Source of the DNA: Candidatus Poribacteria bacterium | GTDB lineage: Bacteria > Poribacteria > WGA-4E > WGA-3G | Assembly: GCA_963665235.2 (NCBI GenBank) | Contig: CAXXLX010000001.1 | Span: forward strand, 1,632,001 to 1,696,000 | Length of the DNA: 64,000 nucleotides | Direction of reading: 5' to 3' | Shown: positions 2,486 to 25,924 of the stretch, in pieces | Layout of the letters: each line of letters opens with the position of its first letter | How positions within the stretch are numbered: position 1 is the first letter of the stretch | Translations under genes and position numbers: made by a program | The notes under the pieces: model-generated | The model's input: only the letters and a program-made list of their open reading frames with translations | Database searches by the model: none | What the model was told of the DNA's origin: nothing

Positions 2486-2638
2486 CAATTTTCTCCTTTT
2501 TCAAATCAATTTAAACAATCAAGTTCGTTCAAGTTTGTTCGTTTTGGGTTTACATTGCAATTAATAAGACGTTGTTTTTGAAGAAAAGTTTACGCTTGGC
2601 ATTAGGCAGGCACACCTACCGTTTAAAATCTTCTATTT

Positions 2639-2750
2639 ACCTGCGGGGAATCGCGTGCGGGTGGAGCGACAGTTAGACGGTTGACTCTATGAGTAAACCG
2701 CAGTTGCTATGAAACCGAAGCCCACGCCTTTAGGCGTTGGGTGCTATCAC
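2639..2750 (+). ncRNA. Orphan TnpB omegaRNA/IS605 right-end-like scaffold, copy 1
   Basis: CTGCGGGGAATC..GTGGAG..GTTAGAC..GAA..CCCACGCC-TTTA-GGCGTTGGG..TCAC resembles the 3' end of tnpB elements. Homologous to 21850-21985. No tnpB ORF adjacent. Confidence 0.65.
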
Positions 2751-3062: not shown

Positions 3063-4451
3063 TTATTTACCAACGCAGAACTGTGAAAAGATTCGGTCTA
3101 GAATATCCTCCGTTGTTGTTTTACCGACGATATCACCAAGGGCATCCAGGCTAATACGTAGGTCGACAGCGACAAGTTCCGGTGGCATGCTATCTGCTAA
3201 GCTAGCTGTAACATAATCAAGTGCTTCGTGGGCGCGGTGCAGAGCGTCTTGGTGGCGTGCATTTGTCACAATCGGCGATTCGCCAGGGACAAATTGGGGC
3301 CCGAGCAGCTCTTCTCGGATAACCGTTTTCAACGTATCAATACCTTGCCCTTCGGGAATCGCTGTCTGAACGATGCGTTTGTTTGAACAGTAAGCTTGTA
3401 ACGTTGTCGCCTGCGTAACAATAGGCAGGTCAACCTTATTCAAAATAAAGACAGCGTTGTGTGAATCCGCTACTTGCAAGAGTTCTATATCCGCGTCATT
3501 CAACGGTTGAGACGCGTCGAACATGAGCAGTAGGAATTCCGCTGTATTGAGAATGTCTTTACTACGTTGTACGCCTTGCTGTTCAACGGTATTATCTGTT
3601 TTGCGTATGCCTGCGGTATCAATGATATTCATCGGGATGCCGCCGAGGTTAATCGTTTCCTCAATTGTATCGCGCGTCGTGCCGGGGATGTCCGTGACAA
3701 TAGCACGCGCTGTCTGAACGAGTGCATTGAGTAGACTCGATTTCCCGACGTTCGGTTTGCCTAAAATACCGACATTGATCCCCTCCTTGATGATTTTGCC
3801 TTCCGAAGCGGTTTCAAGCAACTGTGTTAAGTCTGCTTGGACTGCTTGTGCCGTTTGGTGTTGGATTTCAACCTTCATAAAATCCAGGTCTTCTTCAGGA
3901 AAGTCGATGGAGGCTTCAATTTCTGCAAGTAAATTGGCAAGTCTGTCGCTGATAGCATTGACGCGTTCTGAAAGTTTGCCGGACAGTGCGTTAATTGCAA
4001 TTTTTCGGCTGAGTTCAGTTTTAGCACCAATGAGTTCAGCAACAGCTTCAGCTTGTGCAAGGTCAAGCCTGCCGTTGAGAAAGGCGCGTTGGGTGAACTC
4101 GCCGGGGGCTGCGAGCCGTGCCCCCGCCTTTATGACCAATTCTAGCACGGCTGTTAGAGGCGTATTGCCTCCATGGCAGTTAAATTCCACGATGTCTTCG
4201 GCGGTGTATGTTTTCGGGGCCCGCATAATGCCGAGGAGCACTTCATCAACAATGTCATTAGATGCGGTTGTATCGATAACATGCCCGTACGTAAGCGTAT
4301 GCGTTGGCAGCTCAGCGGGTGAGACTGCGCGTGGGGACCGGAACAGTTGGCATGCGATAGGAATCGCGAGTGCACCGCTGATGCGTATTATACCGATACC
4401 GCCTTCGCCTCTGGGCGTTGCAATCGCAGCGATGGTATCGTCAAATTTCAT
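3063..4451 (-). CDS. mnmE: tRNA modification GTPase MnmE
   Basis: DTIAAIATPRGEGGIGIIRISG, GKPNVGKSS, DTAG, terminal FCVGK. Confidence 0.98.
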   Translation of the reverse strand: MKFDDTIAAIATPRGEGGIGIIRISGALAIPIACQLFRSPRAVSPAELPTHTLTYGHVIDTTASNDIVDEVLLGIMRAPKTYTAEDIVEFNCHGGNTPLTAVLELVIKAGARLAAPGEFTQRAFLNGRLDLAQAEAVAELIGAKTELSRKIAINALSGKLSERVNAISDRLANLLAEIEASIDFPEEDLDFMKVEIQHQTAQAVQADLTQLLETASEGKIIKEGINVGILGKPNVGKSSLLNALVQTARAIVTDIPGTTRDTIEETINLGGIPMNIIDTAGIRKTDNTVEQQGVQRSKDILNTAEFLLLMFDASQPLNDADIELLQVADSHNAVFILNKVDLPIVTQATTLQAYCSNKRIVQTAIPEGQGIDTLKTVIREELLGPQFVPGESPIVTNARHQDALHRAHEALDYVTASLADSMPPELVAVDLRISLDALGDIVGKTTTEDILDRIFSQFCVGK

Positions 4452-19050: not shown

Positions 19051-20502
19051 CTAATTGTTAAGTATAATTTCTAACCGCTTCATATCAGCTTCCATTCGTG
19101 CTCTATCGTTGCTGTAAAGTCGGTAACGGGTTAGCACTTTCTTCACGTATTTTCTACCGGCACTCGTAAGGGAGCCCCCTACCCTGACCTTACCGGGCCC
19201 TATATTATAGGCACCTAATGCCAAAGTCCTATCTTTGTATTTTGCCAAAAGTTTGTTGAAGTAGGTCAATCCAGCGTTCAGATTTTTGTAAGGAGCAAAT
19301 CGTTCATCTACATCAGGATTTCGGTTTGGTTTGAGTTTATTCGTGTATCGTGGCACTTTAAGTCCGAGTTCCCTTGCAGTTCCGGGTATCATTTGCATTA
19401 AGCCCCCTGCTCCAGTCTTTGACACTGCAACCGGGTTAAAATTAGATTCAACGTAAATGATAGCTAACATGAGCTTTACATCGATGTTGTGCTGTTTAGC
19501 GATTTCGGTGCAGGTATATTTCGGCGTTTCAGGGTTTTGTTCCTTTTTCGGTGCCGGTTGATGCGGCTGTGAGATTCCAAAGAACAGCCGCTGTAAATCA
19601 AAGTGCATGCCGATTGCAAGTAGATGTTTATATTCACAATCTGCCCGATTGAGATAGGTGTAATATGCCTGTTTTCCCCACTGATTGAGGGAGAGCCCAA
19701 GGCTCCACGATTGGTAAAGGGTTTCGGTATCCAGCGAGAAATTTGACCCGATGCTTGCGGAAAGCGGACTGGCGACGATTTCTAGGCTTGTACCGAAGCT
19801 GGACGCAGTAAAATTAAAACAGGTATGACCTCGAACAGCGGGGTGGGGTATAACGGTGGCACCGAAGGCAAATTGGGGGGCAAAATTTTTCAAAACTTGC
19901 CCATTTTCATCACGAATGGTTACGCCAGTAATATCACGGTATTGCATACCAATAAGAATGTGAGGGGTGAGCTTTGAGAGTATACCTACGTCATAATTTG
20001 GGGCCCAGCGGCTGCCCGAGTAAGGGGCGCGGCTATATCCTGTGTTTACACCGAGTTGCACCGGTCCGAACTTTTTCGCATAGGAGAAAAGGGCTTGATT
20101 GTTGCCAAGTTCAAATGTGCCAATTGGATTGGCAGCATGATTTATGAGAAAACGGTCAAGTCGATTAAAATCAACGAAATTCACACCGAATGTACCAATC
20201 GGTTTGATAGGATAAGCAAAGGACAGCGCGCCTTGCGAAAAGTCATAAATTAGGTTTCCGTGCTTAAGTGCCGCGAGCCCAGCTGGATTCCAAAGCGGAC
20301 TTGTCGCATCATCTGTACTACTGATAAAGGCACCGCTCAACCCAAGTCCCCGTGTACCAATTTCGGGTCTCAGCTCACGTGCACCAACGTCATCCTGTTG
20401 ATTGCGTGAAATTGAGAAGGCGTTCTTCCCAGAAGGAAAATATGACAGAAGTAAGAGGCAGAGAATGACTATGTGAAGCCACTCTCGTTTATCGAATATC
20501 AA
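19051..20502 (-). CDS. PorV/FadL-like beta-barrel fused to SLT lytic transglycosylase
   Basis: N-terminal GTRGLGLSGAF..DDATSPLWNPAGL; C-terminal AIIYVESNFNPVAVSKTGAGGLMQ and ALGAYNIG. Confidence 0.75.
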   Translation of the reverse strand: MIFDKREWLHIVILCLLLLSYFPSGKNAFSISRNQQDDVGARELRPEIGTRGLGLSGAFISSTDDATSPLWNPAGLAALKHGNLIYDFSQGALSFAYPIKPIGTFGVNFVDFNRLDRFLINHAANPIGTFELGNNQALFSYAKKFGPVQLGVNTGYSRAPYSGSRWAPNYDVGILSKLTPHILIGMQYRDITGVTIRDENGQVLKNFAPQFAFGATVIPHPAVRGHTCFNFTASSFGTSLEIVASPLSASIGSNFSLDTETLYQSWSLGLSLNQWGKQAYYTYLNRADCEYKHLLAIGMHFDLQRLFFGISQPHQPAPKKEQNPETPKYTCTEIAKQHNIDVKLMLAIIYVESNFNPVAVSKTGAGGLMQMIPGTARELGLKVPRYTNKLKPNRNPDVDERFAPYKNLNAGLTYFNKLLAKYKDRTLALGAYNIGPGKVRVGGSLTSAGRKYVKKVLTRYRLYSNDRARMEADMKRLEIILNN

Positions 20503-21298
20503 GGTGACGCTCGGGGTTTTCGCTTTTGCCGTTGTTTCTAATTTCGAAATGGAGATGGGGCCCTGTGGAGATACCGGTATCGCCGGACAACCCGATAACC
20601 TGACCCTGTTCTACGATGCTGCCGGTGGATACTCGGATTCTTGACAAGTGCCCATACCATGTGGTGAAATTGTCAGCGTGTTGTATGACAACAGTTTTCC
20701 CATAACCGCTTTTTCTGCCAGCATAGAGAATACGTCCTGTTTTGGCGGCATAAACTCGGGTGCCAGTTGCTGCTCGGAAGTCTATACCTTCGTGCATAAG
20801 ACGGCGGCGTTTCACGGGATGAAGGCGCATGCCGTACCGTGAGGTTACCACTAACGGAATTCGTAAGGGATTTCCAAAACCTTCGCGGTTATCACTCTGA
20901 ATAAAAATGCGTTTGCCTGCCCGGAGCCGCTTAGGATTCGAGATACCGTTAATCTGCTGAAGCTCCTCCCATTCTACATTATACCTTCTTGCAATACCGT
21001 ACAGTGTATCCCCCGGTTTAACGTCATACCAAATTACCGCTGAATTCTCTTCAAGGGGTACCGATTTAGCATCAACCGGAATTAACAATCTTTCGCCAAC
21101 CCGTAGACGGTCAATAGACTCAATGCTGTTGGTTTGGACAATAGATTTCATAGGTACTTCGTATTTCTCGGCAATCTCCGACAATGTCTCTCCCTTCTGA
21201 ACCTGATGTTGGATGCCGATACAGGAGGCAATCCACGGGTTCGAAGTAACAAACATGAAAACAATGGTTATAACGATTATAATTTGATTTTTCTGCAT
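20489..21298 (-). CDS. LysM x2 + M23 peptidase
   Basis: Two LysM repeats (HQVQKGETL, YDVKPGDTL), HEGID, YGHL, GPHLHFE. Confidence 0.93.
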   Translation of the reverse strand: MQKNQIIIVITIVFMFVTSNPWIASCIGIQHQVQKGETLSEIAEKYEVPMKSIVQTNSIESIDRLRVGERLLIPVDAKSVPLEENSAVIWYDVKPGDTLYGIARRYNVEWEELQQINGISNPKRLRAGKRIFIQSDNREGFGNPLRIPLVVTSRYGMRLHPVKRRRLMHEGIDFRAATGTRVYAAKTGRILYAGRKSGYGKTVVIQHADNFTTWYGHLSRIRVSTGSIVEQGQVIGLSGDTGISTGPHLHFEIRNNGKSENPERHLDIR

Positions 21299-21627
21299 TT
21301 GATACCTAACTTTGGTTGCATTAGTTACCTATGTTTTGTCCAACAAAACACTTATGTTATCGTGTTGCAAACGCCACTAATGAGGGGTGTTTCGAGTAGA
21401 TTTTCACCGCACGTTTTGAAACTGCTTGGACGTGCAACACTTCATCACGCAAAGTCACCTTGAAGGTAGACTGCCTTTTTTTCTGTTTACCCGTAAAAGA
21501 TTTATGTTTATGTCTGGAAAGTGCTTCTATTAACCTCTTTACGGGTATTCGGGCGTAAGGTTTCCCAACTATTTTAGCTGTTTGGGATATAAGCCCGCTA
21601 AGGACGTAATCCCTGACAAGTATCAAG

Positions 21628-21656
21628 TTGACTTCCACTAAAAACTGTGGTATAAT
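21628..21656 (+). promoter_or_regulatory. Near-consensus sigma70 promoter facing a non-coding region
   Basis: TTGACT-17 bp-TATAAT with TG extension. Confidence 0.7.
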
Positions 21657-21660
21657 TATA

Positions 21661-22005
21661 CTAGCACTTTTGGATAGCATTTCCACCCTGCACGAACTCA
21701 GTGCAGGTGCTATCCCTCACCAGTGGAAAGGTATGTAGTGTTAGTGCGAAACCACTTAAAAAGTATACTTAAATATCGTGCTACTTTTTCGCACGAGGCA
21801 CGTGGGGATAGACAGGAACCTTCTAACCTGATATGCCCGTAGGATTTTCACCTGCCGGGAATCGCGTGCGGGTGGAGACGACATAAAAGGATGTCCTCGG
21901 TGGGACCTCGGACGTTCAACCTTCGGGAAGAACGCAAACGTCTATGAAGCCGAAACCCACGCCTTTAGGCGTTGGGTGCTATCACGGTATCAATATCACG
22001 CTGTT
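21661..22005 (+). ncRNA. Candidate structured ncRNA ending in omegaRNA-like scaffold copy 2 (21850-21985) plus about 20-nt putative guide
   Basis: Nested stems and a 7-bp pseudoknot at the 5' end; 3' part homologous to 2639-2750; no + strand ORF. Confidence 0.55.
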
Positions 22006-22069
22006 TTTAGGGGCAACTTGCCCCTAAACGCCAATAAATCCCGGACTTCATCGGAGAAAAACGTGCTAA

Positions 22070-22588
22070 CTACTCGTCTTTAACGGTGAGCAGTACAGTT
22101 TTCGTCTCTGAAAAAATTTGGGTGTCCGTTTCGATTCCCGAGCTACCGACTGAAACTACCTCACTAATCACAGTTACAACGAGTTGGATAACTTCAACCT
22201 GTACGTTAGCTTCGTTCAACGTACTCGGGGCATTCCAGGTAACCGAATTTTCATCGGTGGCAGACAGCGCGCCATGCCCGGTAATGTTTAGCCAATTTAA
22301 CATAACACTGCTACCTCGAACCCCTTTAAAGGAAGCCGTTAATTCGACTTCTCCGCCGGGGCGCACTATTTTATCGGTAACAGTAATCGTCACGTCAAGG
22401 TTGGCTGTCTGCTCTGGATTTTCTGCCTCTTCGCCGGTTTTCACAATTATATCATCCCCGTCTGTTCCAATGGTATCGGTGTCAGATACGGGGTTGTTGA
22501 TATTGCTACCGCCGCATCCTGCGACGTTCAAAACAAGACCAACAAGAAAAATGCTAAAAAACAGTACTAGCAATTGAGATGCTCTCAT
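22070..22588 (-). CDS. Hypothetical lipoprotein
   Basis: Hydrophobic N-terminus with lipobox VAGC. Confidence 0.7.
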   Translation of the reverse strand: MRASQLLVLFFSIFLVGLVLNVAGCGGSNINNPVSDTDTIGTDGDDIIVKTGEEAENPEQTANLDVTITVTDKIVRPGGEVELTASFKGVRGSSVMLNWLNITGHGALSATDENSVTWNAPSTLNEANVQVEVIQLVVTVISEVVSVGSSGIETDTQIFSETKTVLLTVKDE

Positions 22589-25574: not shown

Positions 25575-25597
25575 GAGATGGGCCTTAAAAAGGGAAA

Positions 25598-25669
25598 TGC
25601 CGGTGCGGAGAGTCGAACTCCGGACCGCACGATTATGAGTCGTGTGCTCTACCACTGAGCTACACCGGC
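25598..25669 (-). tRNA. tRNA with CAT anticodon (Ile2 or elongator Met)
   Basis: GCCGGTGTAGCTCAGTGGTAGAGC..CTCATAA..GTTCGACTC..ACCGGCA cloverleaf. Confidence 0.93.
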
Positions 25670-25749
25670 AAATTAAAAGGCTTGAACGAAATACAACACA
25701 CCCATCTGGTGCTACCGCACCAAACGTCGCAAACCGTTGTTAAATACAA

Positions 25750-25823
25750 TTGCAGGGGTGGGATTTGAACCCACGTCCTCCGGGTTATGAGCCCGACGAG
25801 CTACCTGACTGCTCTACCCTGCG
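25750..25823 (-). tRNA. tRNA-fMet (CAT)
   Basis: C1:A72 mismatch and GGG/CCC anticodon stem typical of initiator tRNA. Confidence 0.93.
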
Positions 25824-25838
25824 GCAAGATAGCAAATA

Positions 25839-25924
25839 TGGTCGAGGAGGGACTTGAACCCTCACACCTTTTTATGGGCGATGGATTTTAAGTCCATTGT
25901 GTCTACCAATTCCACCACTCGACC
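25839..25924 (-). tRNA. tRNA-Leu (TAA)
   Basis: Anticodon loop CTTAAAA, long variable arm, GTTCAAGT T-loop. Confidence 0.93.

Follow-up and report, generated by a model that had tools for sequence, protein, structure and literature searches.

A protein-less mobile element between two conserved genes

The DNA considered here is a 64,000-nucleotide stretch of contig CAXXLX010000001.1 of a Candidatus Poribacteria bacterium (the window, numbered from its first letter), in which the interval between a minus-strand M23/LysM peptidase gene (20489-21298) and a minus-strand gene for a 172-aa protein (22070-22588) holds one copy of a multi-copy, protein-less element of the IS200/IS605 insertion sequence (IS) family, at 21543-21985. 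A first-pass annotation made from the letters alone had read 21628-22028 as a promoter-driven, stand-alone guide-RNA gene with an additional 5' structured domain, serving an effector encoded elsewhere. Our best explanation, to which as a whole we give a probability of about 0.8, is that the element is a non-autonomous member of its family, similar to the palindrome-associated transposable elements (PATEs), that it would supply a stand-alone omegaRNA to TnpB acting in trans, and that it would be moved by a Y1 TnpA. In this explanation the element is a tnpB-only IS of Poribacteria that has lost its reading frame and kept its ends, promoter, leader and omegaRNA scaffold. The features of the locus, in order of position, are as follows.

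21539-21542, plus strand: TTAC, target motif of the left flank, outside the element; the homology of the copies starts directly after it
21543-21627, plus strand: left end, with a subterminal imperfect palindrome CCCAA...TTGGG (21564-21586) and an outer stem CGGGC/GCCCG; kept in own-genome copies and in relatives' tnpB-bearing IS
21628-21656, plus strand: sigma-70-type promoter, TTGACT (21628-21633), 17-nt spacer, TGgTATAAT (TATAAT 21651-21656); 11/12 in the promoter scan, with the TG of an extended -10
21661-21744, plus strand: 5' leader domain, a closing stem and two nested stems, with an internal loop (21680-21686) pairing with a neighbouring hairpin loop (21723-21729) as a pseudoknot; covariation helices 1-5
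21743-21756, plus strand: small hairpin AGTG/CACT with a conserved AUACCAC-like motif that aligns with the AUACCAUG tnpB start codon of the parent IS; helix 6, both-sided changes at 3 of 4 pairs
21768-21795, plus strand: deletion junction and linker hairpin CGTGC/GCACG (21777-21781 with 21791-21795), from the alignments of copies
21798-21869, plus strand: omegaRNA scaffold stem S1 (21798-21805 with 21862-21869), enclosing hairpins at 21813-21830 and 21836-21859; covariation helices 14-17
21876-21943, plus strand: scaffold stem S2 (AGACG/CGTCT) with inner hairpins and an insert of about 28 nt at about 21884-21911; covariation helices 18-19
21956-21985, plus strand: right end, a hairpin (21956-21976) followed by TGCTATCAC, where all homology stops; alignments and covariation helix 20
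21986-22005, plus strand: flanking DNA that would be read as a 20-nt guide; different in every copy
22006-22028, no strand assigned: host-DNA hairpin beyond the right end, without a U-tract; the stop of the convergent 172-aa gene is 42 nt away

The boundaries of the element are set by its copies. A search with the 401-nt region of the first-pass annotation returned 39 matches within the own genome, which holds at least six long copies and four of a sister subfamily. When the six long copies are aligned (the window copy, three others on contig 1 and two on contig 2), they share a common end ...GGGTGCTATCAC, at window position 21985, and are followed by unrelated sequence. On the other side the homology edge falls at 21543, directly 3' of TTTAC and 85 nt upstream of the start annotated earlier. 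The bases before this edge read TTTAC, TTTAT, GTTAT or CTTAC across the copies, so that TTAC or TTAT adjoins the first conserved base in the copies aligned or listed, in the manner of a short target motif abutting the left end. By analogy with what is known of IS200/IS605 elements and TnpB, TTAC would be the expected target-adjacent motif (TAM) of the partner TnpB. The palindrome of the left end resembles its counterpart at 21956-21976, which lies directly within the right end; the element has such subterminal imperfect palindromes at both ends and no terminal inverted repeats, and its flanks, ...CTCTTTAC and GGTATCAA..., are not duplicated, which gives no target-site duplication.

The right-hand boundary holds well beyond the window copy. 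Approximately 50 distinct elements, from the own genome and the pooled loci of relatives, have an identical terminal 12 nt followed by different sequence, and those with a readable end all finish in GGGTGCTATCAC, or GGGTACTATGAC in the sister subfamily, a sharp boundary between scaffold and guide. The earlier placement of the end of a TnpB-type scaffold at the TCAC of 21985 is thus borne out, with homology among all copies stopping exactly there, and the 20 nt and the hairpin described after it are both in place. A few elements share flanks between genomes, which indicates orthologous insertions. The four shorter copies of the sister subfamily have an equal layout, with a TTAAC left flank, and match a different IS, one that encodes a 388-aa TnpB.

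No protein gene lies between the ends. Two small minus-strand open reading frames (ORFs) overlap the element, at 21357-21686 (109 aa) and 21756-21884 (42 aa), and the region is in practice ORF-free, as had been stated; the Pfam search, which took in the 109-aa ORF and left out the 42-aa ORF, assigned no family to the former.

Comparison with relatives places the element in the locus as an addition. The protein of 172 aa belongs to no Pfam family, and its gene is matched once in 55 of 60 genomes from the bacterial family; at the five best loci, which represent four other genera, the peptidase and the 172-aa gene are adjacent in the same arrangement. The spacer between them measures about 60-190 nt in these five relatives, as opposed to 771 nt here, and the element is absent from all five. 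With copies at unrelated sites and none in the orthologous spacer, the element is mobile. No conserved neighbouring protein accompanies it, and the genes downstream of the own-genome copies are unrelated. The annotation of a stand-alone guide-RNA gene is therefore right in that a TnpB-type unit lies here with no adjacent effector, and needs amending in that the unit is the cargo of a mobile element rather than a single-copy host gene.

A covarying RNA structure, probably of the plus strand

The 5' domain is formed by the closing stem CTAGCACT (21661-21668) / AGTGTTAG (21737-21744), two stems nested within it, namely GGATAGCA (21672-21679) / TGCTATCC (21708-21715) and CCTGCAC (21687-21693) / GTGCAGG (21701-21707), and the pseudoknot TTTCCAC (21680-21686) / GTGGAAA (21723-21729). 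All three stems and the pseudoknot, each of them picked out in the first-pass annotation, are backed by compensatory changes among 43 aligned copies. The pseudoknot is paired in 99.0% of cases, four of its seven pairs change on both sides, and three pairs show 16-19 both-sided changes each; where the window copy has TTTCCAC/GTGGAAA its genome-mates have TTCTCAC/GTGAGAA, a both-sided change that keeps the pairing.

A structure of 101 pairs, pseudoknot included, was scored on the alignment of 43 copies (A2) with two kinds of control, shuffles and partners slid by 1-3 columns. Paired cells amounted to 92.4% compared with 81.9 +/- 0.3 in the shuffles; 58 of the 101 pairs changed on both sides (37.7 +/- 2.5 in shuffles, 13-21 when slid); and the covariation score was 0.308 (0.125 in shuffles, 0.04-0.07 when slid), with none of 500 shuffles reaching any observed value, figures that overstate the case as far as the shuffles are concerned, since the copies share common descent and themselves supplied the structure. 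More weight attaches to the slid controls and to the variety of independent pair types. The fold of 5' domain and scaffold is real and, by the indications given below, that of the plus strand. The RNA is predicted to be about 325 nt long in the window copy, or about 345 nt when counted to the end of the guide.

Two further pairings did not hold for the family. The fifth stem that had been annotated, GTGCGAAA/TTTCGCAC, is present in the sequence and peculiar to the window copy, the homologous positions elsewhere forming two separate local hairpins. A long-range ACCAC/GGUGG pairing that would join the end of the 5' domain to the scaffold, proposed by RNAalifold from 11 sequences, was rejected because its sides are invariant except in two copies (L088 and L063), whose 5' side changes together with its local partner, in a local hairpin.

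The 5' domain, called riboswitch- or ribozyme-like and of no recognised family in the first-pass annotation, matches no Rfam family. With Rfam 15 at gathering threshold the whole window yielded three tRNAs only; at E up to 10 the interval 21300-22100 gave SAM-II (15 bits and E 6.8, where the gathering score is 44) and a microRNA (miRNA), both chance-level; six full-copy loci searched at E up to 1 returned four chance-level matches to miRNA or untranslated-region families; and ARAGORN reported no tmRNA. Readings of the domain as a known riboswitch, ribozyme, group I or II intron, HEARO, tmRNA or RNase P were dropped, there being no Rfam match beyond chance level.

The strand is indicated by two observations taken together. 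Folding energy does not identify it, being low on both strands (z -5.10 on plus, -5.24 on minus). Among the 4229 cells of the 43-copy alignment, G-U pairs number 222 compared with 91 A-C, and this excess, combined with the direction of the promoter, points to the plus strand. The promoter itself, annotated earlier as TTGACT-17-TATAAT and present as described, would not stand on its match score, as 1 kb contains two promoter-like sites where shuffles contain 1.4 +/- 1.3, a number not above chance. It is credible because a site of the form TTGAN, 16-18 nt, TANNNT is conserved in 46 of 50 related copies.

Such a promoter, strong, conserved, facing the right end and followed by no terminator inside the element, invites the suggestion that the element is chiefly a mobile outward-reading promoter that alters host expression, antisense here to the 172-aa gene at 22070-22588 and elsewhere sense to downstream genes. 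In one own-genome copy (L009, contig 1:185189-185200) 17 nt separate the right end from the start codon of thioredoxin; the 'guide' there coincides with the ribosome-binding region of the gene, into which the element promoter should read straight. Another own-genome copy abuts the ORF of a major facilitator superfamily (MFS) transporter. However, as read from ORF tables, the next gene runs in the same direction for only about 6 of 10 own-genome copies, which is near chance; the neighbouring genes are mutually unrelated; and a promoter has no need of a conserved scaffold structure. We regard this account as improbable, and outward transcription as a side effect rather than an alternative identity.

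Derivation from tnpB-bearing elements

The parent of the element appears to be an IS of the same bacterial family that encodes a TnpB of 369-379 aa. In relatives these tnpB elements agree with ours in left end (TTTAC|GGG...hairpin), promoter and leader fold, and the promoter and leader fold together precede tnpB in the own genome and at 10 loci of relatives. The own-genome tnpB (contig 1:331168-332274) is intact and encodes 368-370 aa (368-aa frame 331168-332271; locus to 332366); its promoter reads TTGACA, 17 nt, TGTGGTATAAT, and its leader has the same topology of nested stems and pseudoknot in different letters. The pseudoknot partners of tnpB leaders vary from copy to copy (for example TGCAAAG/CTTTGCG, TGTTCAG/CTGAACA, TAATCAG/CTGATTA). 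A covariance model, R1, built from the 5' domains of RNA-only copies alone, finds the leaders of 11 tnpB loci and one further RNA-only relic at E values from 1e-11 to 0.03, with no match in two truncated loci or in the 388-aa tnpB IS, which has a different leader. In the R1 alignment the AUACCAC of the RNA-only copies lies on the AUACCAUG start of tnpB, and in relatives the closing stem of the leader ends about 10 nt before the tnpB AUG.

The 3' part leads to the same parent. The last 100-160 nt of the element have their homologue in the sequence that follows the stop codon in the 369-379-aa tnpB genes, and the profile of the 3' scaffold matches just after the tnpB stop in 12 of 12 loci, over nearly its full length in seven and over the last ~100 nt in the other five. 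Behind the own-genome tnpB, a stretch of ~95 nt shows 81% identity to the end of the element, with no difference in the terminal 12 nt. Leader, promoter, left end, scaffold and right end are thus all held in common with the tnpB IS, which argues for an element that is such an IS after loss of its frame. The possibility that the 5' part is an IS605 left end or decayed tnpB, raised at the outset, is not what we found; the 5' pseudoknot domain is the conserved tnpB mRNA leader of the parent IS. A search for decayed tnpB coding sequence inside the element, made by scanning the genome with PF07282, found nothing at the long RNA-only copies.

The matching TnpB is typical of its kind and, by motif, catalytically intact. 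The own-genome protein (368 aa) carries the Pfam domains PF07282 and PF01385 and is homologous to the ISDra2 TnpB structures (phmmer E ~1e-42); the printed alignment, whose top match is an AI-designed nuclease, keeps GVDxG, the E in L/VExLN, and HDRDxNAA, the three RuvC motifs. Its compatibility with the RNA of the element is suggested by the shared right end. Domain matches in the genome number 44 for TnpB and 13 for Y1 TnpA (PF01797). A separate family, present in six copies, consists of a longer TnpB-domain protein (open frame of 528-550 aa, with weaker domain scores of 53-59 bits; contig 1:1060114, 872286, 1029596, 1045871 and 1079999, and contig 3:3206).

The retention of the leader admits a further reading, in which the 5' pseudoknot domain, alone or together with the central domain described below, is a regulatory or catalytic RNA (a leader that senses a ligand or protein, or a self-processing module) that controls translation of tnpB in the parent IS and maturation of the omegaRNA in the RNA-only copies. 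The fold is kept in tnpB leaders and RNA-only copies despite wholly different sequences, which indicates selection on structure; its closing stem stands close to the tnpB start codon; and it has outlived the loss of the ORF, 37 of 43 loci being tripartite. On the other hand, no riboswitch or ribozyme family was matched, SAM-II being the best at the score given above, no conserved single-stranded core of a ligand pocket turned up, in analyses of which none was a search aimed at one, the 388-aa tnpB IS has a different leader, and a stabilising 5' structure explains the same data. We consider a regulatory role unlikely. As a best guess, leader and central domain serve in the stabilisation, or the correct folding and processing, of a long precursor.

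Distribution and the central domain

When the scaffold pattern was scanned over one genome per prokaryotic species, 43 loci were found, all of which belong to Candidatus Poribacteria records. The unit is tripartite in 37 of these, composed of the 5' domain, a central domain and the 3' scaffold in about 365-390 nt, with no room for a gene; the other six are truncated, lie at the edge of a locus or, like the window copy, have no central domain. Two further genomes of the family hold full-length relatives of the window element (71-77% identity), and its last ~100 nt are found in 23 of 41 genomes overall (22/24 in the family, 0/16 in three other families of the order). The leader was found in 47 of 121 sampled genomes of the phylum, all from one family (by family, 46/81 there and 0/39 elsewhere), and a single genome can hold as many as 32 or more copies.

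The central domain, about 130 nt in length, is present in 42 of the 43 rows of alignment A2, the window row being the sole one to have lost it, with a junction at ~21768-21776. The own genome has it in the five long RNA-only copies and nowhere else. It covaries in the RNA-only copies, and its profile found nothing convincing among 12 tnpB IS loci (best E 0.074). The insert of about 28 nt in S2 is likewise restricted, occurring only in the window copy and those at C1:892xxx and C1:2373xxx. The inserted module (AGGATGTCCTCGG..., 21884-21911) is also seen apart from the element: L010 (contig 1:892846-893119) has a tandem array of about 15 repeats of an 18-mer derived from it, and the module also lies inside another, three-copy repeat family. 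It has 8 matches at two or fewer mismatches and ~20 shorter ones, and besides the window and L010 it is placed at six other genome sites.

These two departures raise the question of whether the window copy is a decaying, non-functional relic whose transcription is inconsequential and which is kept only because excision is rare. The missing central domain, which the other 42 rows possess, and the repeat-derived insert in S2 both speak for this, as does the existence of other partial copies (window 2636-2750, the fragment C1:2373670-2373877, and L090). Set against it are an intact promoter (11/12), scaffold helices and right end that are all intact, and a pseudoknot in which a both-sided change has kept the pairing; moreover, the sister subfamily works with a different, shorter middle, so that the central domain may be dispensable. 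We find the relic reading doubtful for the window copy. Of the partial copies, the one in the window (contig 1:1634636-1634750) consists of the 3' scaffold only (profile positions 66-181) and has the same right end.

More speculatively, the RNA-only elements could form a lineage of RNA hyperparasites in which leader and central domain have functions of their own, capturing TnpB from its mRNA, gating omegaRNA maturation or sensing a signal. This seems to us a tentative idea and rather unlikely; if it were true, the leader would be a new class of cis-regulatory RNA for tnpB genes.

A model for guide-RNA supply in trans

Returning to the PATE-like explanation, the steps by which such an element could persist can be set out against the described cycle of its relatives, in which Y1 TnpA acts by peel-and-paste, the right-end RNA guides TnpB, and the vacated site, composed of TAM and flank, is cleaved (PMC10055086, PMC10691335 and PMC10278001). 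The internal sigma-70 promoter would transcribe the plus strand from ~21660, giving an RNA that begins with the old tnpB mRNA leader and its pseudoknot, continues through the omegaRNA scaffold (S1, S2 and the right-end hairpin) and reads out past the right end, so that the next ~20 nt of host DNA (21986-22005) would become the guide. TnpB made elsewhere, for which contig 1:331168-332274 is the candidate in the own genome, would bind the S1-S2-right-end scaffold and trim the 5' part; Nety et al. show that tnpB mRNA undergoes 5' processing of this kind. The resulting ribonucleoprotein (RNP) would recognise TTAC followed by the guide sequence (GGTATCAATATC...), the joint left when Y1 TnpA excises the element, and would cut the vacated joint, whereupon repair from a sister copy would restore the element. 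Movement to new TTAY sites would depend on the TnpA of the TnpA+TnpB elements of the genome, which have similar end hairpins: these show 16-17-nt identities to the cores of the element's end hairpins and finish in ...TATCAC.

The guide behaves as this model would have it. Within the own genome the sequence at 21986-22005 has no second site at two or fewer mismatches in 20 nt, only its own flank and otherwise chance-level near matches, a pattern that fits a homing guide rather than a regulator in trans. The target search recommended with the first-pass annotation has thereby come back empty outside the locus. The same result bears upon the suggestion of a domesticated guide RNA that serves a nuclease-dead, TnpB-like repressor (TldR-like) at a host promoter. 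Guide-RNA genes apart from their effector are known for TldR systems (10.1101/2023.11.30.569447), but in addition to the absence of a second genome site for the guide the copies are many and have unrelated flanks, the matching TnpB keeps its RuvC motifs, and the element keeps its transposon ends; domestication of this kind is very improbable. The hairpin at 22006-22028 that follows the guide could, from its sequence, end either of the two converging transcripts.

Several observations weigh against the proposed explanation. Four metatranscriptome runs, all from one study and available as contigs only, with neither strand nor ends, have a summed depth of 145-1907 over 21940-22003 and of 0-48 elsewhere; the high depth is confined to 45 nt common to many copies, and many contigs branch at 21985/21986 into different flanks. 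As many copies in RNA and carry-over of DNA would look alike, contig depth was not counted as evidence of expression. A terminator scan placed no terminator-like site after the guide. The exact empty joint TTAC|GGTATC was not recovered at the window locus, the spacers of relatives being too diverged to align, and a comparison of a copy in genome G020 with genome G012 revealed a replaced segment and no clean empty joint. The window copy, for its part, may be impaired by the loss of the central domain and the 28-nt insert in S2, intact as it is in promoter, leader, scaffold helices and right end. The sole matching tnpB of the own genome has a short S1 hairpin, not the expanded S1 of the RNA-only copies, and its element (L091, contig 1:331000-331170) has TTTAC and a promoter with no recognisable left-end hairpin between them, unlike those of relatives, so that the tnpB copy may be immobile. 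Although all 16 sampled genomes with an RNA-only central domain also hold a close TnpB homologue, this co-occurrence is weak support, since TnpB is present anyway in 65 of the 81 family genomes and related genomes do not count as independent cases.

Relationship to described systems

The first-pass annotation had put the locus forward as a candidate for an undescribed system, and on this point our assessment differs. Stand-alone omegaRNAs that are mobilised and work in trans are already described (Altae-Tran et al. 2021, as summarised in PMC10691335), and so are PATEs that encode omegaRNAs, the PATEs of IS200/IS605, for example in Geobacillus stearothermophilus, being said to 'often encode omegaRNAs' in the relevant passage of Meers et al. 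2023 (PMC10055086). What looks new, when set beside those passages, is the tnpB leader fold together with the ~130-nt central domain that is private to RNA-only copies and has been lost from the window copy. Among the papers returned by our literature searches, none mentioned Poribacteria in connection with TnpB or dealt with a structured leader of tnpB.

The resemblance to the stand-alone omegaRNAs of OMEGA systems, as far as the summary describes them, is close: both are mobilised copies of a scaffold with neither effector nor transposase, in genomes that have effector-bearing copies, and both take the guide from the flank. Working in trans is a stated feature of those RNAs. Unlike them, as summarised, the Poribacteria family has its own conserved sigma-70 promoter and a former tnpB mRNA leader; most of its copies have the covarying central domain of ~130 nt, with no counterpart in the 12 tnpB IS loci; and its RNA, at ~365-390 nt (~325 in the window copy), is longer than a scaffold alone. 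With the PATEs, as described there, it shares the left and right ends of IS200/IS605, the lack of a protein gene, a predicted reliance on TnpA in trans, and omegaRNAs in need of TnpB in trans. It is set apart from them, as described, by its host phylum (43 of 43 scan matches in Candidatus Poribacteria), its TTAY flank and TATCAC end, and its extra RNA domains.

A further comparison is with the tnpB-only (IS1341-type) elements of the same bacterial family, in which left end, promoter, leader fold, 3' scaffold and right end are those of the element; from these the element differs in that the tnpB frame of 1.1 kb is gone, the position of the start codon still being recognisable (AUACCAUG compared with AUACCAC). 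The structural reference is the ISDra2 TnpB-omegaRNA complex (PDB 8bf8, 8h1j), to which the own-genome TnpB is homologous, the comparison being made at the level of protein. IStrons and group I intron-bearing IS605/IS607 elements, of which PATE derivatives exist (10.1101/2023.11.20.567912), likewise have a large structured RNA on the 5' side, in an IS605-family element with an omegaRNA at its end. Our element contrasts with them, so described, in that Rfam gives it no match to a group I intron (E up to 10 for 21300-22100, up to 1 at the six full-copy loci) and in an RNA that would start at an internal promoter instead of being spliced from a host transcript.

The family is of interest in several respects. 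It shows how far an RNA-guided transposon may be reduced, to ends, a promoter and a guide RNA that would live off the TnpA and TnpB of others, and it adds a well-sampled natural family, of ~50 copies with rich covariation, from an uncultured phylum of sponge symbionts. The covariation-supported structure of a long TnpB omegaRNA and its precursor can guide the engineering of the cognate TnpBs of 370-380 aa. Furthermore, as the leader fold and central domain match no Rfam family, they make the control of tnpB expression and omegaRNA biogenesis in native hosts directly testable.

Further features of the window and genome

Two copies of the sister subfamily depart from the usual form. The one at contig 1:1263140-1263595 is nearly identical to that at contig 1:494590-495045, minus 4 nt of the -10 box, and in L016 (~4240-4400, contig 1:~102240-102400) four tandem units of ~33 nt replace the usual left end upstream of a sister-subfamily copy. 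In a relative, an RNA-only copy (L040) lies directly 3' of sequence that, by eye, resembles the 3' end of a tRNA. The three tRNAs of the window itself form a minus-strand cluster at 25597-25924, comprising two tRNA-Met (CAU) and one tRNA-Leu (UAA).

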